A stretch of 64,000 bases of DNA. It comes from an uncultured Chloroflexia bacterium (GTDB lineage: Bacteria > Chloroflexota > Dehalococcoidia > DSTF01 > JALHUB01). Below are positions 2,416 to 57,311 of the stretch, in pieces. The stretch spans positions 1,369,471-1,433,470 of the forward strand of contig OY970386.1 in assembly GCA_963719465.1 (NCBI GenBank), read 5' to 3'. The position numbers and the translations under genes are program-made. Position 1 is the stretch's first letter, and the number at the start of each line of letters is the position of its first letter. The notes under the pieces are model-generated. The model saw only the letters and a program-made list of their open reading frames with translations, searched no databases and was not told the origin of the DNA.

Positions 2416-2736
2416 TTCTCGTCAATCCTGTGCTTGCGTCGGGACGCGTGCTTATCGATTCACTGATGGGGGGCAACAAAAAACTTCTCGTGGTGTGAGA
2501 AGTTCTTCCTACTCTCATCTCTCCCGCTGCGGCAGGGTCGGACTTGGCACCATGTTGGGGGCTGATGACCTCCCAAACTGGTTGCCGGGCTTCGTAGGGC
2601 CGGTCCCTCCACCACTCTGGATAAGAGCGTTTACCGTATTCGGTTGTTACTTTATTCTAGGCTCGACGCCCAACGCCGTCAACCCGTGGCAGCGGAGCGT
2701 TTTGTGTCCTAAACGAAGAGTGGAGGGTGACGAGAC

Positions 2737-11792: not shown

Positions 11793-12211
11793 TCGCGAGT
11801 CTAACCGCTCCTGATGTTAGGCTCAACCCGTGGGCTCTATCCATAATACCACGGAGGGCGCCGGTTGCGGGGAGCTCCGCCACTTCTCGTCGAAAACCCG
11901 GTGGCGAAGGGCTGGAGATGAGCTTGGCGGACGTGGCGAAGGCGCTGGATGACTGAAGAATCGACAAGAATAGCAGAAGACGGCCGGGGGAGCCTGGCCG
12001 CCTTCCGCCAATCCAGACCGCCTCTGGCACCCTCAAACCACAGACGGCTTTCAAATATTGGGTAGGAGGTTCGCCTGTATTGTCTCTCTCAGATGTTGTG
12101 CGCCTATAGCTGCCAAGTTAACAATCGGTAAAACGTGCAAAATCTGAACGACTTTCTTGACCCTCCTTTCCGGCCGCCCCTTGTGATTCAGCCGGCTCGG
12201 TTGATCGCCCT

Positions 12212-13238
12212 TGTAGGGTTTCAGGAGATGTGAGACAGAAGGGAGGTGAATAACGTCGGGCCTGGGCTGTAGGCTAACGGAAAACGAAGCCCAATAACCT
12301 ACAGGAGGCCCGACATGCACAAAGCTCGCACACCCTGGCCCATCCAGACAAGAGCCGCCTACATCGCTGCGTTCGAGGAGGCGCGTCGGCAGTATCCCAG
12401 GCTCAGCGCCCGCATCTTTTGCCAGGCGGGAGAGGTGCCCCATTCGACCTTCTCTCGCTGGTGGGCGGCCTGGCGACGCCACGACAGGAGAGCGCTATCA
12501 GACCGCTCCCGCAGGCCTCACCGCTCGCCTACGGCCCTTTCAGGGCATGTTCTAGACATCATCCGCGGCGCCCATCGTAAATTCGGCTTCGGAGTAAAGA
12601 GGCTCCACGCGTATCTGACAAAGGCCGGGCTGATTACCTGCAGCGTTTCCAGTGTCTACAGAGTTCTCCGTCGCGCCGGCGCCCTCCTTGCCTGTCCCCG
12701 TAAACCTAAGCGTCTCTGGCTGCACTACGCCAAAGCTTCCCCCGGTGATCGGGCTCAGATGGACCTGCTCTATCTGCCGGAGGGTCGCTACCAACTGACC
12801 CTGGTCGACGATTGCAGCCGCGTTCTTGCCGCAACGGTTCTTTCCAGGCGCACCTGCGCCGCTGTCTGCAAAGCCCTGCCGTGCCTCCTGGAGACCATCC
12901 CGTTCGCAATTCGCTGCCTCCAGACTGATAACGGCCCTGAATTCTCAGGCGACCTCACTGCCCTTCTGAGGCGAAGAGGCATTCGCCACGTCCGGATCAG
13001 ACCCAGGACGCCTCATCTCAATGGCAAGGTGGAGAGAGTGCAGAGGACGATGCGAGAGGAGTTCTGGGATGGCGTTCTGGCGGGAACGGTCTTGGAGTGG
13101 GAGAAGGGGTTGCAGGCGTATGTGCGCTTCTACAACAAGAAACGGCTGCACAGTGCTCTTGGCTACAGCGCGCCGCTCGTGTACGCTCAGGAGCGTCTAC
13201 CTCAGGCCCGGATCTACCACATCTCCTGAAACCCTACA
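12212..13238 (+). mobile_element. IS481-family insertion sequence, copy 1 (1027 bp)
   Basis: 21-bp terminal inverted repeats TGTAGGGTTTCAGGAGATGTG (12212-12232; reverse complement at 13218-13238), flanked by a 15-16 bp direct repeat TCGGTTGATCGCCCT(T) at 12197-12211 and 13239-13254. Confidence 0.9.
12315..13229 (+). CDS. IS481-family transposase (DDE integrase core)
   Basis: 304 aa; identical to the 41.3-kb copy through residue ~300 (the last residues differ after a 1-nt difference); N-terminal HTH plus an rve-like core. Confidence 0.9.
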   Translation: MHKARTPWPIQTRAAYIAAFEEARRQYPRLSARIFCQAGEVPHSTFSRWWAAWRRHDRRALSDRSRRPHRSPTALSGHVLDIIRGAHRKFGFGVKRLHAYLTKAGLITCSVSSVYRVLRRAGALLACPRKPKRLWLHYAKASPGDRAQMDLLYLPEGRYQLTLVDDCSRVLAATVLSRRTCAAVCKALPCLLETIPFAIRCLQTDNGPEFSGDLTALLRRRGIRHVRIRPRTPHLNGKVERVQRTMREEFWDGVLAGTVLEWEKGLQAYVRFYNKKRLHSALGYSAPLVYAQERLPQARIYHIS

Positions 13239-13374
13239 TCGGTTGATCGCCCTTATGACGCATGGTAAACTGCCAGCAAGCGGCAGAGGCTGTCTGCCGT
13301 TTTGCTCTCATTGAGCAGGTGGACTCAGCAATTGTTGGAAGGGACGCCGCAGCATCAGGAGCGACGAATCTGCG

Positions 13375-13452
13375 GTGGGCGTAGCCGAGCGGTTTAAGGC
13401 GCCAGGTTGTGGCCCTGGAGATCGAGGGTTCGAATCCCTCCGTCCACCCCAG
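13375..13452 (+). tRNA. tRNA-His (anticodon GTG)
   Basis: Hand-folded cloverleaf: extra G-1 pairs with discriminator C73 (a His hallmark), anticodon loop TTGTGGC, T-loop TTCGAAT, CCA encoded. Confidence 0.85.
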
Positions 13453-14534: not shown

Positions 14535-14610
14535 GCGCCTGTAGCTCAGCGGAAAGAGCATCGGTCTTCGGAACCGAGGGTCGGGGGTTCGAATCCCTCC
14601 AGGCGCGCCA
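14535..14610 (+). tRNA. tRNA-Arg (anticodon TCG)
   Basis: Hand-folded: acceptor GCGCCTG/CAGGCGC, D-arm TAGCTCAGCGG, anticodon loop CTTCGGA, T-loop TTCGAAT, discriminator G, CCA encoded. Confidence 0.8.
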
Positions 14611-37997: not shown

Positions 37998-40086
37998 TTA
38001 AGCCCTCGCCGGCCGCCTGGCGCGAACGCCGAGCTTTTCGACGACCGCGGGCGGCACCTCTTCGTAATGGTCGAACTCCATGTTGTGGCTTGCTCGTCCC
38101 TGCGAAAGCGACCTCAACTCTGTTGCGTAGCCAAATGTCTCTGCTAGCGGCACCAGCGCACGCACAACCTGCAGGCCGCCGCGCGACTCGACGCCAATGA
38201 CGTGACCGCGACGGCCATTGACATCGGCGAGAATATCGCCGAAGAAATCCTCCGGCGTCAGCACTTCGACTTTCATGATCGGTTCCAGGAGAACGGCATC
38301 GCCATGCTCGAGCGCCTTTCGCATGCCCATCGAGCCGGCCATGCGGAACGAAAGCTCCGACGAGTCAACCTCGTGGTAGGCGCCGTCGACCAGCGCTACT
38401 CTGACGTCAATGACGGGGTAGCTGGCGACCGGGCCGTTCTCCAGCGCCTCGTTGACGCCGGCGCGGACCGCAGAAATGAACTCGCGCGGGACTACGCCGC
38501 CGACCGTTTTGTCGACGAACTCGAAGCCGGCGCCGCGCTCTCTCGGCTCGACCTCCAGCCAGACGTCGCCGTACTGACCTCGGCCGCCGGTCTGCCGTAC
38601 GAAACGTCCCTCGGCGCGGGTGGCGGACCGGATCGTCTCCTTGTATGCGACCTCCGGCTTGCCGACATTGGCGTCGACGCGGAACTCGCGAAGCATGCGG
38701 TCGACGATCACCTCCAGGTGCAACTCGCCCATGCCGGAGATGATGGTCTGGCCGGTATCAGCGTCGTAGCGCGTGCGGAAAGTGGGGTCTTCCTCCGCCA
38801 GGCGGTTCAACGTCTCGCCCATCCGGTCCTGGTCGTCCTTCGTCTTCGGTTCGATGGCGACGGACAGAACCGGCTCCGGAAAGCGGATCGACTCCAGCAC
38901 TATTGGGTGAGCGCGGTCGCACAGAGTGTCGCCGGTGAACGTATTCTTCAGGCCAACTGCGGCGACGATGCCGCCGGCGTGCACCTCGTCGACCTCTTCG
39001 CGGCGGTTGGCGTGCATGCGCAGGATGCGGCCGAATCGTTCCCTCTCGTTGCGGGCGGCGTTCAGAATAGTTGCGCCGACCTTTACCTGGCCGCTGTAGA
39101 CGCGGAAGTAGGCAAGCCGCCCAACATACGGGTCGGCGACGATCTTGAAGGCCAGAGCCGTGAACGGCTCGTTGTCGTCTGCTTTTCGTTGGACTGTCTG
39201 ATTGTTCTTGGGGTTGATTCCGGTCACCGGGGGGACGTTCTACGGGAGCCGGGAGGTAGTCGACGACTGCGTTCAGGAGAGGCTGGACGCCCTTGTTTCG
39301 CAGGGCGGAGCCGCACATTACCGGCGTAATTGCGCCAGCCAGCGTGGCGCGCCTGACCGCCTTCTTCAACTCCAGCGTCGTCAGCCGGTGTCCCTCGACG
39401 TAGCTGATCATCGCCTGGTCGTCCACTTCCGCGAGGGTCTCGGTGAGGCGCTCACGGTAGGGGGCGCACTTCTCGGCCAACTCGTCGCTAAGGGGCAGCA
39501 CGTCGGGGTTCTCGTGGCTTTCCGGCGGGAAGTACCAGGCCTTCTCCTCGACCAGGTCCACCACACCCTCGAAGCCTGCCTCGACGCCTATCGGCACCTG
39601 TATGGCTACCGGCCGCGCGCCCAGGCGCTGCTTCACCATCTCGATGGTGTTCCAGAAGTCCGCGCCGATGCGGTCCATCTTGTTAACGAAGCAGATCCGC
39701 GGCACGCTGTAGCGGTCCGCCTGCCGCCAGACCGTCTCCGACTGGGGCTCGACGCCGGCGACGGCGTCGAAGACGACCACGCCGCCGTCGAGGACGCGCA
39801 GGCTGCGCTCCACCTCGACGGTGAAGTCCACGTGGCCCGGCGTGTCGATGATGTTGATCTGATGGTCGAGCCATTCGCAGGTGGTAGCGGCGGCGGTTAT
39901 GGTGATGCCGCGCTCGCGCTCCTGGGCCATCCAGTCCATTACCGCCGTGCCCTCGTGCACCTCGCCCATCTTGTAGGTGCGGCCGGTGTAAAAGAGGATG
40001 CGCTCAGTGACCGTAGTCTTGCCGGCGTCAATATGGGCAATGATGCCTATGTTGCGTAAGCGCTCGATAGGAAACTGCCTGGCCAT
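37998..40086 (-). CDS. fusA: elongation factor G, with an apparent +1 frameshift at the G6 run 39229-39234
   Basis: The G domain ([25 protein letters not shown]...DYLPAPVE) reads in the frame of track ORF 38758-40128. Domains II-V ([10 protein letters not shown]...[12 protein letters not shown]...) read in the frame of ORF 37998-39227. Removing one G/C from the 6-mer rejoins them as ...[17 protein letters not shown]...; total ~695 aa. Confidence 0.85.
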
Positions 40087-40177
40087 GATTTCTATCCCCC
40101 GCGAACGGGGCTTTGTCGATACGATCAATGTTCTACGTATTGCCTTCGGTTAGAGCGGCGACGCGCGCCGCTCGCGA

Positions 40178-40667: not shown

Positions 40668-41093
40668 CTACTTCGACTTGGCGCCGGCTTTGCGCGTCCC
40701 GTACTTGCTGCGACCACGATTGCGGCCGTCGACGCCCTGCGCGTCAAGGGCGCCGCGAATGACGTGATAGCGCACACCCGGCAGGTCTTTGACGCGTCCG
40801 CCGCGGATGAGCACGACCGAGTGCTCCTGGAGGCTGTGCCCTTCGCCGGGAATGTACGCCGTCACCTCGATGCCGTTCGTGAGCCGCACGCGGGCAATCT
40901 TCCGCAGAGCGGAATTCGGCTTCTTCGGCGTCATGGTGCGTACCTGAGTGCAGACGCCGCGCTTTTGCGGCGAGCCTTCGCCGCGCTCGGTCCGGTTCTT
41001 AAGGGCGTTGTAGGTAAAACGCAGAGCGGGCGCCTTCGTCTTCTTGACGAGCTTCTTGCGTCCTTTGCGCACTAATTGGCTTATGGTGGGCAC
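40668..41093 (-). CDS. rpsL: 30S ribosomal protein S12 (GTG start)
   Basis: Canonical S12 from (V)[14 protein letters not shown]; the upstream part of track ORF 40668-41198 is leader, not coding. Confidence 0.9.
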
Positions 41094-41261
41094 GCGCTTA
41101 CCTCTCTCAGGAATCTTGGACTGGCCTGCTCTCAGACAACAAAAAGGCCGAAAACCTGATTCTGAGCCAGTACAGCGTGAAGCGCCGTGGCGCTTCACTA
41201 TCGCTGACCGTAGTCAATTCGAGGTCTTTCGACCTTGCTTTGCTCTGTCGCTCAGCGCCAA

Positions 41262-41298
41262 ACACATACTTTACGTGATATGGCGCAAGAGTGTCAAG
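41262..41298 (-). promoter_or_regulatory. str-operon promoter candidate: consensus -35 TTGACA (plus 41292-41297) - 18 nt - TAAAGT (-10, plus 41268-41273), ~170-nt leader to rpsL
   Basis: Hexamers read on the minus strand; the -35 lies inside the IS copy-2 target duplication. Confidence 0.4.
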
Positions 41299-42224
41299 CA
41301 GTGTAGGGTTTCAGGAGATGTGGTAATCCGGGCCTGAGGTAGACGCTCCTGAGCGTACACGAGCGGCGCGCTGTAGCCAAGAGCACTGTGCAGCCGTTTC
41401 TTGTTGTAGAAGCGCACATACGCCTGCAACCCCTTCTCCCACTCCAAGACCGTTCCCGCCAGAACGCCATCCCAGAACTCCTCTCGCATCGTCCTCTGCA
41501 CTCTCTCCACCTTGCCATTGAGATGAGGCGTCCTGGGTCTGATCCGGACGTGGCGAATGCCTCTTCGCCTCAGAAGGGCAGTGAGGTCGCCTGAGAATTC
41601 AGGGCCGTTATCAGTCTGGAGGCAGCGAATTGCGAACGGGATGGTCTCCAGGAGGCACGGCAGGGCTTTGCAGACAGCGGCGCAGGTGCGCCTGGAAAGA
41701 ACCGTTGCGGCAAGAACGCGGCTGCAATCGTCGACCAGGGTCAGTTGGTAGCGACCCTCCGGCAGATAGAGCAGGTCCATCTGAGCCCGATCACCGGGGG
41801 AAGCTTTGGCGTAGTGCAGCCAGAGACGCTTAGGTTTACGGGGACAGGCAAGGAGGGCGCCGGCGCGACGGAGAACTCTGTAGACACTGGAAACGCTGCA
41901 GGTAATCAGCCCGGCCTTTGTCAGATACGCGTGGAGCCTCTTTACTCCGAAGCCGAATTTACGATGGGCGCCGCGGATGATGTCTAGAACATGCCCTGAA
42001 AGGGCCGTAGGCGAGCGGTGAGGCCTGCGGGAGCGGTCTGATAGCGCTCTCCTGTCGTGGCGTCGCCAGGCCGCCCACCAGCGAGAGAAGGTCGAATGGG
42101 GCACCTCTCCCGCCTGGCAAAAGATGCGGGCGCTGAGCCTGGGATACTGCCGACGCGCCTCCTCGAACGCAGCGATGTAGGCGGCTCTTGTCTGGATGGG
42201 CCAGGGTGTGCGAGCTTTGTGCAT
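41271..42224 (-). CDS. IS481-family transposase, copy 2; a 1-nt difference near the 3' end lets the ORF read through the right IR into flanking DNA
   Basis: 317 aa, identical to copy 1 through ...ERLPQARI, then diverges. Copy 2 has GGATTACC where copy 1 has GGATCTACC. Confidence 0.85.
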   Translation of the reverse strand: MHKARTPWPIQTRAAYIAAFEEARRQYPRLSARIFCQAGEVPHSTFSRWWAAWRRHDRRALSDRSRRPHRSPTALSGHVLDIIRGAHRKFGFGVKRLHAYLTKAGLITCSVSSVYRVLRRAGALLACPRKPKRLWLHYAKASPGDRAQMDLLYLPEGRYQLTLVDDCSRVLAATVLSRRTCAAVCKALPCLLETIPFAIRCLQTDNGPEFSGDLTALLRRRGIRHVRIRPRTPHLNGKVERVQRTMREEFWDGVLAGTVLEWEKGLQAYVRFYNKKRLHSALGYSAPLVYAQERLPQARITTSPETLHCLTLLRHIT

Positions 42225-42327
42225 GTCGGGCCTCCTGTAGGTTATTGGGCTTCGTTTTCCGTTAGCCTACAGCCCAGGCCCGACGTTATTCACCTCCCTT
42301 CTGTCTCACATCTCCTGAAACCCTACA
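41302..42327 (-). mobile_element. IS481-family insertion sequence, copy 2 (1026 bp), inverted relative to copy 1
   Basis: Same 21-bp terminal IRs (41302-41322 and 42307-42327), flanked by a 16-bp direct repeat CAAGAGTGTCAAGCAG at 41286-41301 and 42328-42343. Confidence 0.9.
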
Positions 42328-42358
42328 CAAGAGTGTCAAGCAGATGGCGAAATGGCCG

Positions 42359-42808
42359 CTACATTCGGCCGAGGAGGTCGCGAACGACTTCGCTTACCTC
42401 TTTGCCGTCGGCGCGGCCGCGAAGCTGGGCGGTCAGCGGGCCCATGACCTTTCCCATGTCGCGCGGGCCCTGGGCGCCGACCTCGTCGATGATCTTTCGT
42501 GCTGCGGTTTCGATGTCTTCTCGCGACATCGCCGGCGGCAGGTAGGCCTGCAGGATCGCTGCTTCGGCCTCCTCTTTGTCGACGAGGTCCTGGCGGTTGC
42601 CGCGCCGGAACTCTTCGGCGCTCTCTTTGCGCTGCTTGACCTGCTTGGCGATCACCGCGAGGACGCCGCCGTCATCCAGCGGCTCGCCCTTCTCGATCTC
42701 GGCGTTGTGGACGACGGAGAGGAGAAGGCGGAGGGTGGTTTTGCGGGTTTCGTCGCCCGCCCGCAGGGCCTGCGTCAGGTCGGCGTTAATCTGGTCTTTG
42801 ATGGGCAT
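42359..42808 (-). CDS. GatB/YqeY domain-containing protein
   Basis: 149 aa with the YqeY family pattern (LRLLLSVVHNAEIEKG...). Confidence 0.75.
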   Translation of the reverse strand: MPIKDQINADLTQALRAGDETRKTTLRLLLSVVHNAEIEKGEPLDDGGVLAVIAKQVKQRKESAEEFRRGNRQDLVDKEEAEAAILQAYLPPAMSREDIETAARKIIDEVGAQGPRDMGKVMGPLTAQLRGRADGKEVSEVVRDLLGRM

Positions 42809-57213: not shown

Positions 57214-57311
57214 TGGCGGGAGTGGGTGGGAGTCGAACCCACCCGGGACGGCGCAGGCCGCCCCGCAACGATTTTGAAGACCGCGAGACCCACCGGGACC
57301 CATCCACTCCC
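57214..57311 (-). tRNA. selC: tRNA-Sec (selenocysteine, anticodon TCA) candidate
   Basis: Hand-folded 98-nt tRNA: 8-bp acceptor GGGAGTGG/CCACTCCC, 5-bp T-stem with loop TTCGACT, anticodon loop CTTCAAA, long variable arm with a 7-8 bp stem, discriminator G, CCA encoded. The D-stem is G-U rich. Aligns nearly column-for-column with E. coli selC (D-loop CGGT, CTTCAAA and ...GTCCCGG-GTGGG-TTCGACTCC... shared). Confidence 0.65.

Follow-up and report, generated by a model that had tools for sequence, protein, structure and literature searches.

An IS481-like insertion at a str-operon promoter is very probably an ordinary product of an element directed to sigma70-type promoters

In the 64-kb stretch of DNA analysed here (the window), the str operon opens with rpsL (S12; 40668..41093, minus strand), the first gene of rpsL-rpsG-fusA, with the same synteny as in relatives, and is preceded by yqeY, which encodes a GatB/YqeY-domain protein (42359..42808, minus strand, upstream of the insertion described here). 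Between these two genes lies IS copy 2, an IS481-like insertion sequence of 1,026 bp (41302..42327, minus strand) whose termini, IRL (42327..42307) and IRR (41322..41302), are perfect 21-bp inverted repeats, TGTAGGGTTTCAGGAGATGTG, a sequence that occurs four times in the 64-kb window and thereby defines two copies of the element. A 16-bp target duplication, CTGCTTGACACTCTTG, abuts both ends of copy 2 directly and is found exactly twice in the 64 kb, at 42343..42328 and 41301..41286. The duplicate nearer to yqeY (42328..42343, minus strand), separated from the yqeY stop (42359) by 15 nt, adjoins IRL and holds an orphan -35 (42339..42334) followed by IS DNA without a -10. Its counterpart (41286..41301, minus strand) adjoins IRR and forms part of an intact str-operon promoter (41268..41297, minus strand), composed of TTGACA (41297..41292), an 18-nt spacer and TAAAGT (41273..41268). 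Read along the minus strand, this duplicate is followed by CGCCATATCACG, TAAAGT, a leader of 174 nt counted from the end of the -10, and the rpsL GTG at 41093. TTGACA-18-TAAAGT, with 10 of 12 bases matching, was the sole sigma70-like match that a promoter scan returned in 2 kb. The rpsL leader itself (41094..41261, minus strand; ~170 nt) is conserved and structured, with high conservation among relatives and a few compensatory changes, and yielded no match to Rfam at E up to 1. The copy 2 transposase ORF (41271..42224, minus strand; 317 aa), with HTH_32, rve and rve_3 domains, reads in the same direction as rpsL; at its 3' end it crosses IRR and the adjoining duplicate and stops at a TAA (41273..41271) that is also the first three bases of the -10 TAAAGT. 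An earlier note on this DNA had described the element and its -35-bearing duplication upstream of rpsL, the intact promoter contiguous with rpsL, the second -35 at the far IS end and the shared direction of transposase and rpsL, and all of these were found as described.

The earlier note had also suggested a comparison with IS-free relatives, which we located through YqeY homologues at 90% and 81% identity; searches for exact copies of the window's YqeY and RpsL sequences gave no match. The relatives L145-L151 share the gene order purH ... rpsU-yqeY-rpsL-rpsG-fusA, with a yqeY-rpsL spacer of ~225 nt that holds no IS, and provide the uninterrupted site at rpsL. Once the IS and one duplicate are taken out, the window aligns with them colinearly, which proves the insertion and its boundaries; judged from these alignments, the insertion is recent and its boundaries are exact. 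CTTGACA-N18-TAAAGT is conserved in L145-L151, with TAAACT in a more distant relative, and the DNA from the yqeY stop to the -35 is not conserved among relatives. Given conservation of the motif but not of the DNA upstream of it, the motif behaves as the native str-operon promoter.

The window holds a second insertion, IS copy 1 (12212..13238, plus strand; 1,027 bp), with a transposase of 304 aa (12315..13229) and a flanking 15-bp duplication, TCGGTTGATCGCCCT, at 12197..12211 and 13239..13253. Immediately to its right the sequence reads TCGG-TTGATC-17 nt-(TGg)TAAACT, after which 103 nt lead up to tRNA-His (13375..13451); the tRNA-His promoter (13243..13271, plus strand) comprises TTGATC at 13243..13248, a 17-nt spacer and TGgTAAACT, with the -10 at 13266..13271. 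Register and orientation to the IS end are therefore the same at tRNA-His and at rpsL, and both window copies follow a single geometry of IS end, 4 nt, -35, 17-18 nt and -10, co-directional with the downstream gene. At the tRNA-His site, GTTGAT-N17-TGGTAAACT is conserved in an IS-free relative (L152), where the neighbouring DNA is variable, and it is conserved again in L093, which carries a remnant of the IS ends at the homologous tRNA-His promoter in the same register. The two window copies differ solely by one C (IS position 1003) that is missing in copy 2; its loss alters the last few codons of the copy 2 transposase and, as had been noted earlier, extends the ORF through the inverted repeat, from 304 to 317 aa. 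As fusA in the same window is also frameshifted, one extra nucleotide near 39239 splitting this essential gene by comparison with a relative, the 1-nt deletion that lengthens the transposase of copy 2 may be an error of assembly and not real.

The core promoter and conserved leader of rpsL are intact, and the DNA displaced by copy 2 is non-conserved upstream sequence only. No intrinsic terminator was detected on that strand from the transposase gene to rpsL, so that read-through from the IS into rpsL is possible and would probably be minor. The promoter scan detected no sigma70-like promoter inside the IS, and the leader of the transposase gene is predicted to fold into a hairpin (-40 kcal/mol, z = -2.7) that buries the GGAGG ribosome-binding site. 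IS elements commonly remain silent under outside transcription by sequestering the ribosome-binding site in such a hairpin. We infer that the effect of the insertion on rpsL expression is small. A hybrid promoter composed of the orphan -35 and the IS end was considered and rejected: the hexamers at 16-18 nt are CAGGAG, AGGAGA, GGAGAT and GAGATG, and with AGGAGA/GGAGAT standing where a -10 would be needed no such promoter would lead into the transposase gene. A promoter across the circle junction of the window IS is not evident either (CTGAAA ... TCAGGA).

The transposase is encoded by a single ORF of DDE type, without a programmed frameshift, in which rve (49 bits) and rve_3 (58.7 bits) both exceed their cut-offs and HTH_32 scores 37.8 bits. 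Its best NCBIfam match is the IS481 model (NF033577), at 199.6 bits below the curated cut-off of 224, with IS3 at 99.5, and Pfam PF13011 (LZ_Tnp_IS481) passes marginally, at 22.8 bits against a cut-off of 22.2. The ends are TGT...ACA (TGTAGGG...) and the length is ~1 kb, both as in IS481 elements, which measure about 0.95-1.3 kb and have inverted repeats beginning with TGT, and seven residues after the catalytic E there is an R (GKVERVQRTMR; NGKVERVQRTMR), corresponding to the IS481-type K/R; an R at E+7 and a length of 1.03 kb set it apart from IS1202, which has Q at E+7 and larger elements. The duplications of 15-16 bp lie inside the range reported for the IS481 family, in which 6 bp predominates and one subgroup has about 15 bp (PMC10045372). 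On the combined basis of domains, model scores, single ORF, ends, the R at E+7 and length, the element is classified as a divergent member of the IS481 family or of a sister group. The exact transposase sequence was found only in IS-sized Logan contigs without flanks, and the nearest match in the genome-contig collection, 81% identical, is in the Dehalococcoidia MAG PFL44.

To place the two window insertions among others of the same element, we used a scan of a metagenome collection whose query was the 21-nt inverted repeat alone, which holds no promoter information. The scan returned 61 loci and, together with the window and two MAG loci (L004/L015), these gave 60 distinct junction flanks, read outward from the IS end and freed of duplicates by comparing the first 40 nt only; most of the metagenome junctions come from one group of related sediment samples, and some sites may share closely related genomes. 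A promoter match of at least 8/12 with its -35 at bases 5-10 (offset 4), pointing away from the IS, was present in 27 of the 60 flanks against a background of 0.18% at other positions in the same flanks (binomial P 3e-58), with four matches each at offsets 3 and 5 and between zero and two at every remaining offset. At bases 5-7, 27 of the 60 flanks read TTG, against 1.2% in the background, and 27 of the 60 have a TAnnnT beginning at base 28 or 29, against 0.4% per position. Of the 27 flanks with TTG at this place, 19 also show TAnnnT after a spacer of 16-18 nt, compared with 2.6% of background TTG sites. Around 14 flanks combine a weak -35 (at most 4/6) with a strong -10 (at least 5/6) at the right distance (TCGACG...TATAAT and GTGCAA...TATAAT, for example, and also TCGAAC), and some six sites have a good -35 without a recognisable -10 (e.g., L128, L137, L084, L091 and L110). 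Flanks outside the 27 mostly represent the orphan side of an insertion, and 17 of them carry the reverse-complemented -35 at the position expected for that side. Since each insertion contributes one flank with the promoter and one with the orphan duplicate, promoter flanks would be expected to make up ~50% of the total if nearly all insertions were at promoters. Of about 52 distinct sites, at least 43 conform under a strict rule, and ~9 have no clear -35 by the rule used.

Duplication length and orientation could be read from the same junctions. Eight loci had paired junctions, with duplications of 15 bp in five and 16 bp in three; inclusion of the window copies brings these to six and four sites, respectively. 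The complete promoter adjoins IRR in ~10 cases and IRL in ~17, and both orientations of the IS occur, as expected for identical 21-bp ends. On promoter-side flanks a forward ORF or a tRNA mostly starts 40-400 nt downstream. The -35 keeps one offset throughout, whereas the -10 follows it after either 17 or 18 nt, which identifies the -35 as the measuring point. The rpsL site had been regarded in the earlier note as an unusual place for an IS to be tolerated; that view does not stand, because copy 1 and about half of the 60 junction flanks share the same -35 register, and the rpsL site instead reflects target specificity.

Among transposase homologues at 26-34% identity in the genome collection, whose ends were defined by group-specific end motifs, groups from Bacillota and Patescibacteria are also promoter-anchored. 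In the Bacillota group (IRL TGTAGGnnTTACAATGATG), 17 of 19 IRL flanks have a strong outward promoter with its -35 at offset 29-31, equal to a 25-26 bp duplication plus the 4-nt gap found at the window IS, and the IRR flanks have no corresponding promoter peak; TTGACA-17-TACAAT spans the abutted ends of these elements. In the Patescibacteria group, a pair of copies from a single genome defined the ends, and the order IRL, 5-6 bp duplication and TTGACA-17/18-TATAAT is seen in most of the ~16 flanks. These patterns show that promoter anchoring is older than the window IS, and the three duplication classes appear as cuts approximately one helical turn apart, measured from the -35. A further group, from Bacilli/Tenericutes (IRL TGTWGAGTTATAATACATATG), is AT-rich, and its flanks yield promoter-like matches too often to discriminate. 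Some actinobacterial homologues are located at tRNA 3' ends instead.

We propose that copy 2 is very probably an ordinary product of an IS481-like element that targets sigma70-type promoters and takes the -35 as its anchor. The two strand-transfer cuts lie 4 bp before and 5-6 bp after the -35 hexamer, and repair duplicates the 15-16 bp that contain the -35. One junction in this way retains a complete promoter, from 4 bp upstream of the -35 onward, that reads away from the IS, the retained complete promoter at rpsL being that of the str operon, and the other receives an orphan -35 running into the IS end, with no -10 available to it. The low cost of such an insertion to the host would make the target a safe haven, and the presence of the element before essential genes would follow from the small price of an insertion that preserves the promoter.

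What the transposase recognises is a separate matter, and we give roughly even chances to the functional promoter being the target, likeliest as the RNA polymerase-sigma complex or the DNA shape imposed, as opposed to TTGACA alone. A promoter bound by polymerase is favoured because -35, spacer and -10 would most simply be read jointly by the RNA polymerase holoenzyme, and the enrichment of the -10 even where the -35 is weak suggests that whole promoters are recognised, possibly with RNA polymerase bound. Purifying selection against insertions within genes must contribute to the -10 enrichment. Sites with a good -35 but no -10 would fit direct read-out of DNA better than tethering to RNA polymerase. 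Searched against Pfam with E values up to 10, the N-terminus of the transposase gave no indication of a sigma70 region-4-like domain, and no similarity was seen between the inverted repeat and the target sequence. More tentatively, at a little less than even chances, a widespread IS481-like clade that crosses phyla may pick promoters occupied by RNA polymerase holoenzyme and be anchored at sigma region 4/-35.

The strongest competitor to recognition of whole promoters is direct read-out, in which the transposase would bind a -35-like hexamer (cTTGACA) on naked DNA and non-promoter insertions in genes would be purged; we regard it as the less likely reading of the two, but a serious one. It accommodates TTG as the best-conserved part of the target, the anchoring of the register on the -35 and the sites named above where a good -35 has no recognisable -10, but it sits poorly with the many sites whose -35 is weak (3-4 of 6) and whose -10, 17-18 nt away, is near perfect. 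Hexamers this weak are very common, and a transposase that accepted them would be expected to produce numerous harmless insertions between genes that lack a -10, yet such insertions are rare; moreover, the DNA duplicated in Bacillota lies wholly upstream of the -35, yet its distance to the promoter is fixed. Another account, to which the earlier note's view of a tolerated site comes close, is a chance insertion with no special target that survived since the duplication restored the promoter. Though compatible with the rpsL site read alone, this is extremely improbable in light of the single-base register at copy 1 and of 27/60 flanks against a 0.18% background, and selection cannot fix a register when insertion anywhere upstream of the promoter would be equally harmless.

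Two further accounts concern the element itself and its effect on the host. If the IS carried parts of an outward promoter, TTGACA would be part of the element and the apparent duplication would be IS sequence; many IS3 and IS481 elements do carry outward -35 boxes, and the Bacillota relatives have TTGACA 8 nt inside IRR and TACAAT inside IRL. The complete promoter in IS-free relatives at both window sites refutes this for the window IS, the flanks and duplications differ between copies, and the IS ends have no match to a -35 or -10, the orphan -35 meeting AGGAGA/GGAGAT, so that the probability left to it is negligible. Selection of copy 2 for altered expression of the str operon, through lost upstream context or through read-through, is very unlikely for different reasons. 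The DNA upstream of -40 has indeed been replaced by the IS end, and the stretch between transposase gene and rpsL lacks a detected terminator, but the replaced DNA is short and unconserved among relatives, the core promoter and leader are untouched, the IS itself has no detectable promoter, and the general targeting rule already accounts for the site.

IS481 itself has an NCTAGN target and makes 6-bp repeats, and IS1202 elements are larger than the window IS. IS1, IS2, IS30 and, in Bordetella, IS481 have an outward -35 and create or carry promoters. Like the window IS, such elements stand directly beside the -35/-10 region of a gene, but the window IS supplies no promoter and preserves an existing one by duplicating its -35. 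Among eukaryotic retrotransposons, Ty3 integrates where Pol III starts transcription, Ty1 in the DNA upstream of tRNA genes and Tf1 at Pol II promoters. These share with the window IS a fixed position relative to promoters, the sparing of coding DNA and integrases of retroviral/DDE type, and they differ in host domain and element type; for the window IS, tethering to RNA polymerase is a proposal drawn from its insertion sites.

Closer to the element itself, IS481 and flanking genes are mentioned in PMC13548323, and "not a few" members of the IS481 family make ~15-bp duplications (Kojima 2023, PMC10045372), while IS1202 and the eukaryotic IS481EU have duplication classes of about 5, 15 and 25 bp (PMC10045372); that paper has nothing on targets, and the word "promoter" is absent from it. 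The window IS resembles the ~15-bp subgroup of IS481 in its one DDE (rve) ORF of ~300 aa, N-terminal HTH, TGT...ACA ends and ~1-kb length, and the discrete duplication classes, one helical turn apart, of the window IS and its distant relatives match those of IS481, IS1202 and IS481EU, whereas the transposase of the window IS stays below the NCBI cut-off (199.6 against 224 bits). Transposases of IS1202 have a Q seven residues after the catalytic E, and the ISAba32 subgroup inserts 5-6 bp from XerCD recombination sites (bioRxiv 10.1101/2022.12.17.520857); for the 15-17 bp and 27-28 bp subgroups of IS1202 no target is reported (Siguier et al., bioRxiv 10.1101/2022.12.17.520857). ISAba32 is alike in having a related DDE transposase, in inserting at a constant distance from a functional DNA site bound by protein and in its fixed orientation with IRL next to the site, which also applies to the Bacillota and Patescibacteria relatives, and the reading as a safe haven is applicable to both. 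It is unlike the window IS in that its target is a recombinase site and not a promoter, and the window IS has R, not Q, at E+7. In open-access papers and bioRxiv, we found neither target specificity described for the IS481 members with long duplications nor any bacterial IS said to target the promoter -35.

If the proposed targeting is true, promoters at single-base register would constitute a new target class for bacterial DDE transposons, and harmless insertion before essential operons (rpsL, tRNA genes, ftsH) would be accounted for, with the rpsL insertion becoming a predictable event instead of an apparent oddity. For the ~5/15/25-bp duplication classes of IS481, IS1202 and IS481EU, which are unexplained, the -35 would supply a functional landmark, and an interaction of the transposase with RNA polymerase or with promoter DNA would be predicted. 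In Dehalococcoidia, Patescibacteria and other uncultured phyla, the junctions of these elements would mark out real promoters, and the transposase could serve as a tool for promoter-directed insertion. Should the more specific reading through the RNA polymerase holoenzyme also be true, these elements would represent a bacterial counterpart of promoter-tethered integration of the Ty3 or Tf1 type, their 5-6, 15-16 and 25-26 bp duplications would correspond to cuts placed one helical turn apart, as measured from the -35, and they would be natural markers of active promoters in uncultured bacteria.

The rpsL leader, a stretch of about 170 nt on the minus strand (41094..41261), is both conserved and structured. 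Conservation is high among relatives whose YqeY identity is 81-90%, three distinct sequences having been compared, and the predicted fold is one long structure in which a few compensatory changes were seen across these three (for example in the hairpin GTGAAGCGCC..GGCGCTTCAC). An Rfam search of the leader with E values up to 1 returned no match. On the basis of these three distinct sequences, it may represent a type of ribosomal-protein leader in Dehalococcoidia that has yet to be described. Other RNA features in the window include a SAM riboswitch (2512..2627, minus strand, 73.8 bits), tRNA-Arg(TCG) (14535..14610, plus strand) and tRNA-Sec (57214..57311, minus strand), the last of which points to selenoprotein use by this genome.

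In the same operon, the minus-strand gene for EF-G, fusA, has one extra nucleotide at about 39239, within 39230..39245 (GTAGAACGTCC in the window versus GTAG-ATGTCC in L145, an IS-free relative at the yqeY-rpsL site), which breaks the gene into two frames that overlap (ORFs 38758..40128 and 37998..39227). As the gene is essential, the insertion is probably an assembly indel error, and other single-base indels of the window thereby become doubtful, including the missing C by which IS copy 2 differs from IS copy 1.

The transposase leader is predicted to fold into a stable hairpin, GUCGGGCCU...CUGUAGG...CCUACAGGAGGCCCGAC (-40 kcal/mol, z = -2.7), at 12254..12316 in IS copy 1 and about 42285..42223 in IS copy 2, within which the GGAGG ribosome-binding site immediately 5' of the transposase ATG would be sequestered. 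Beside the homologue of the promoter adjoined by IS copy 1, that of tRNA-His (13375..13451, plus strand), the relative L093 carries only an IS remnant, in unchanged register and about 160-240 nt upstream of tRNA-His. This remnant consists of a truncated, inverted left IR followed by the right IR with almost nothing separating them, making it an internally deleted or MITE-like copy. Three Logan contigs of about 1 kb (from SRR28011638, SRR18214601 and SRR18214642) contain the IS and nothing else; their transposases are 100% identical to that of IS copy 1, and the contigs are collapsed repeats, so this IS is present in multiple copies in other samples that have been sequenced.

In the Bacillota relatives (L025-L074), TTGACA stands 8 nt inside IRR, facing outward, and TACAAT 9 nt inside IRL, facing inward, so that abutted ends would yield TTGACA-17-TACAAT, a predicted textbook circle-junction promoter for copy-out-paste-in transposition. 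The window's IS lacks such an arrangement. In Actinomycetota and Dormiibacterota, three transposase homologues (L008, L009 and L013; 31-37% identity) are directly preceded by tRNA 3' ends, with a GGTTCAAATCC-type T-arm and then the acceptor end, and in L009 a 14-bp repeat, CGCCGGGGCTACCA, is identical to the tRNA 3' end. Judging from these junctions, tRNA genes may be the target of a sister transposase lineage.
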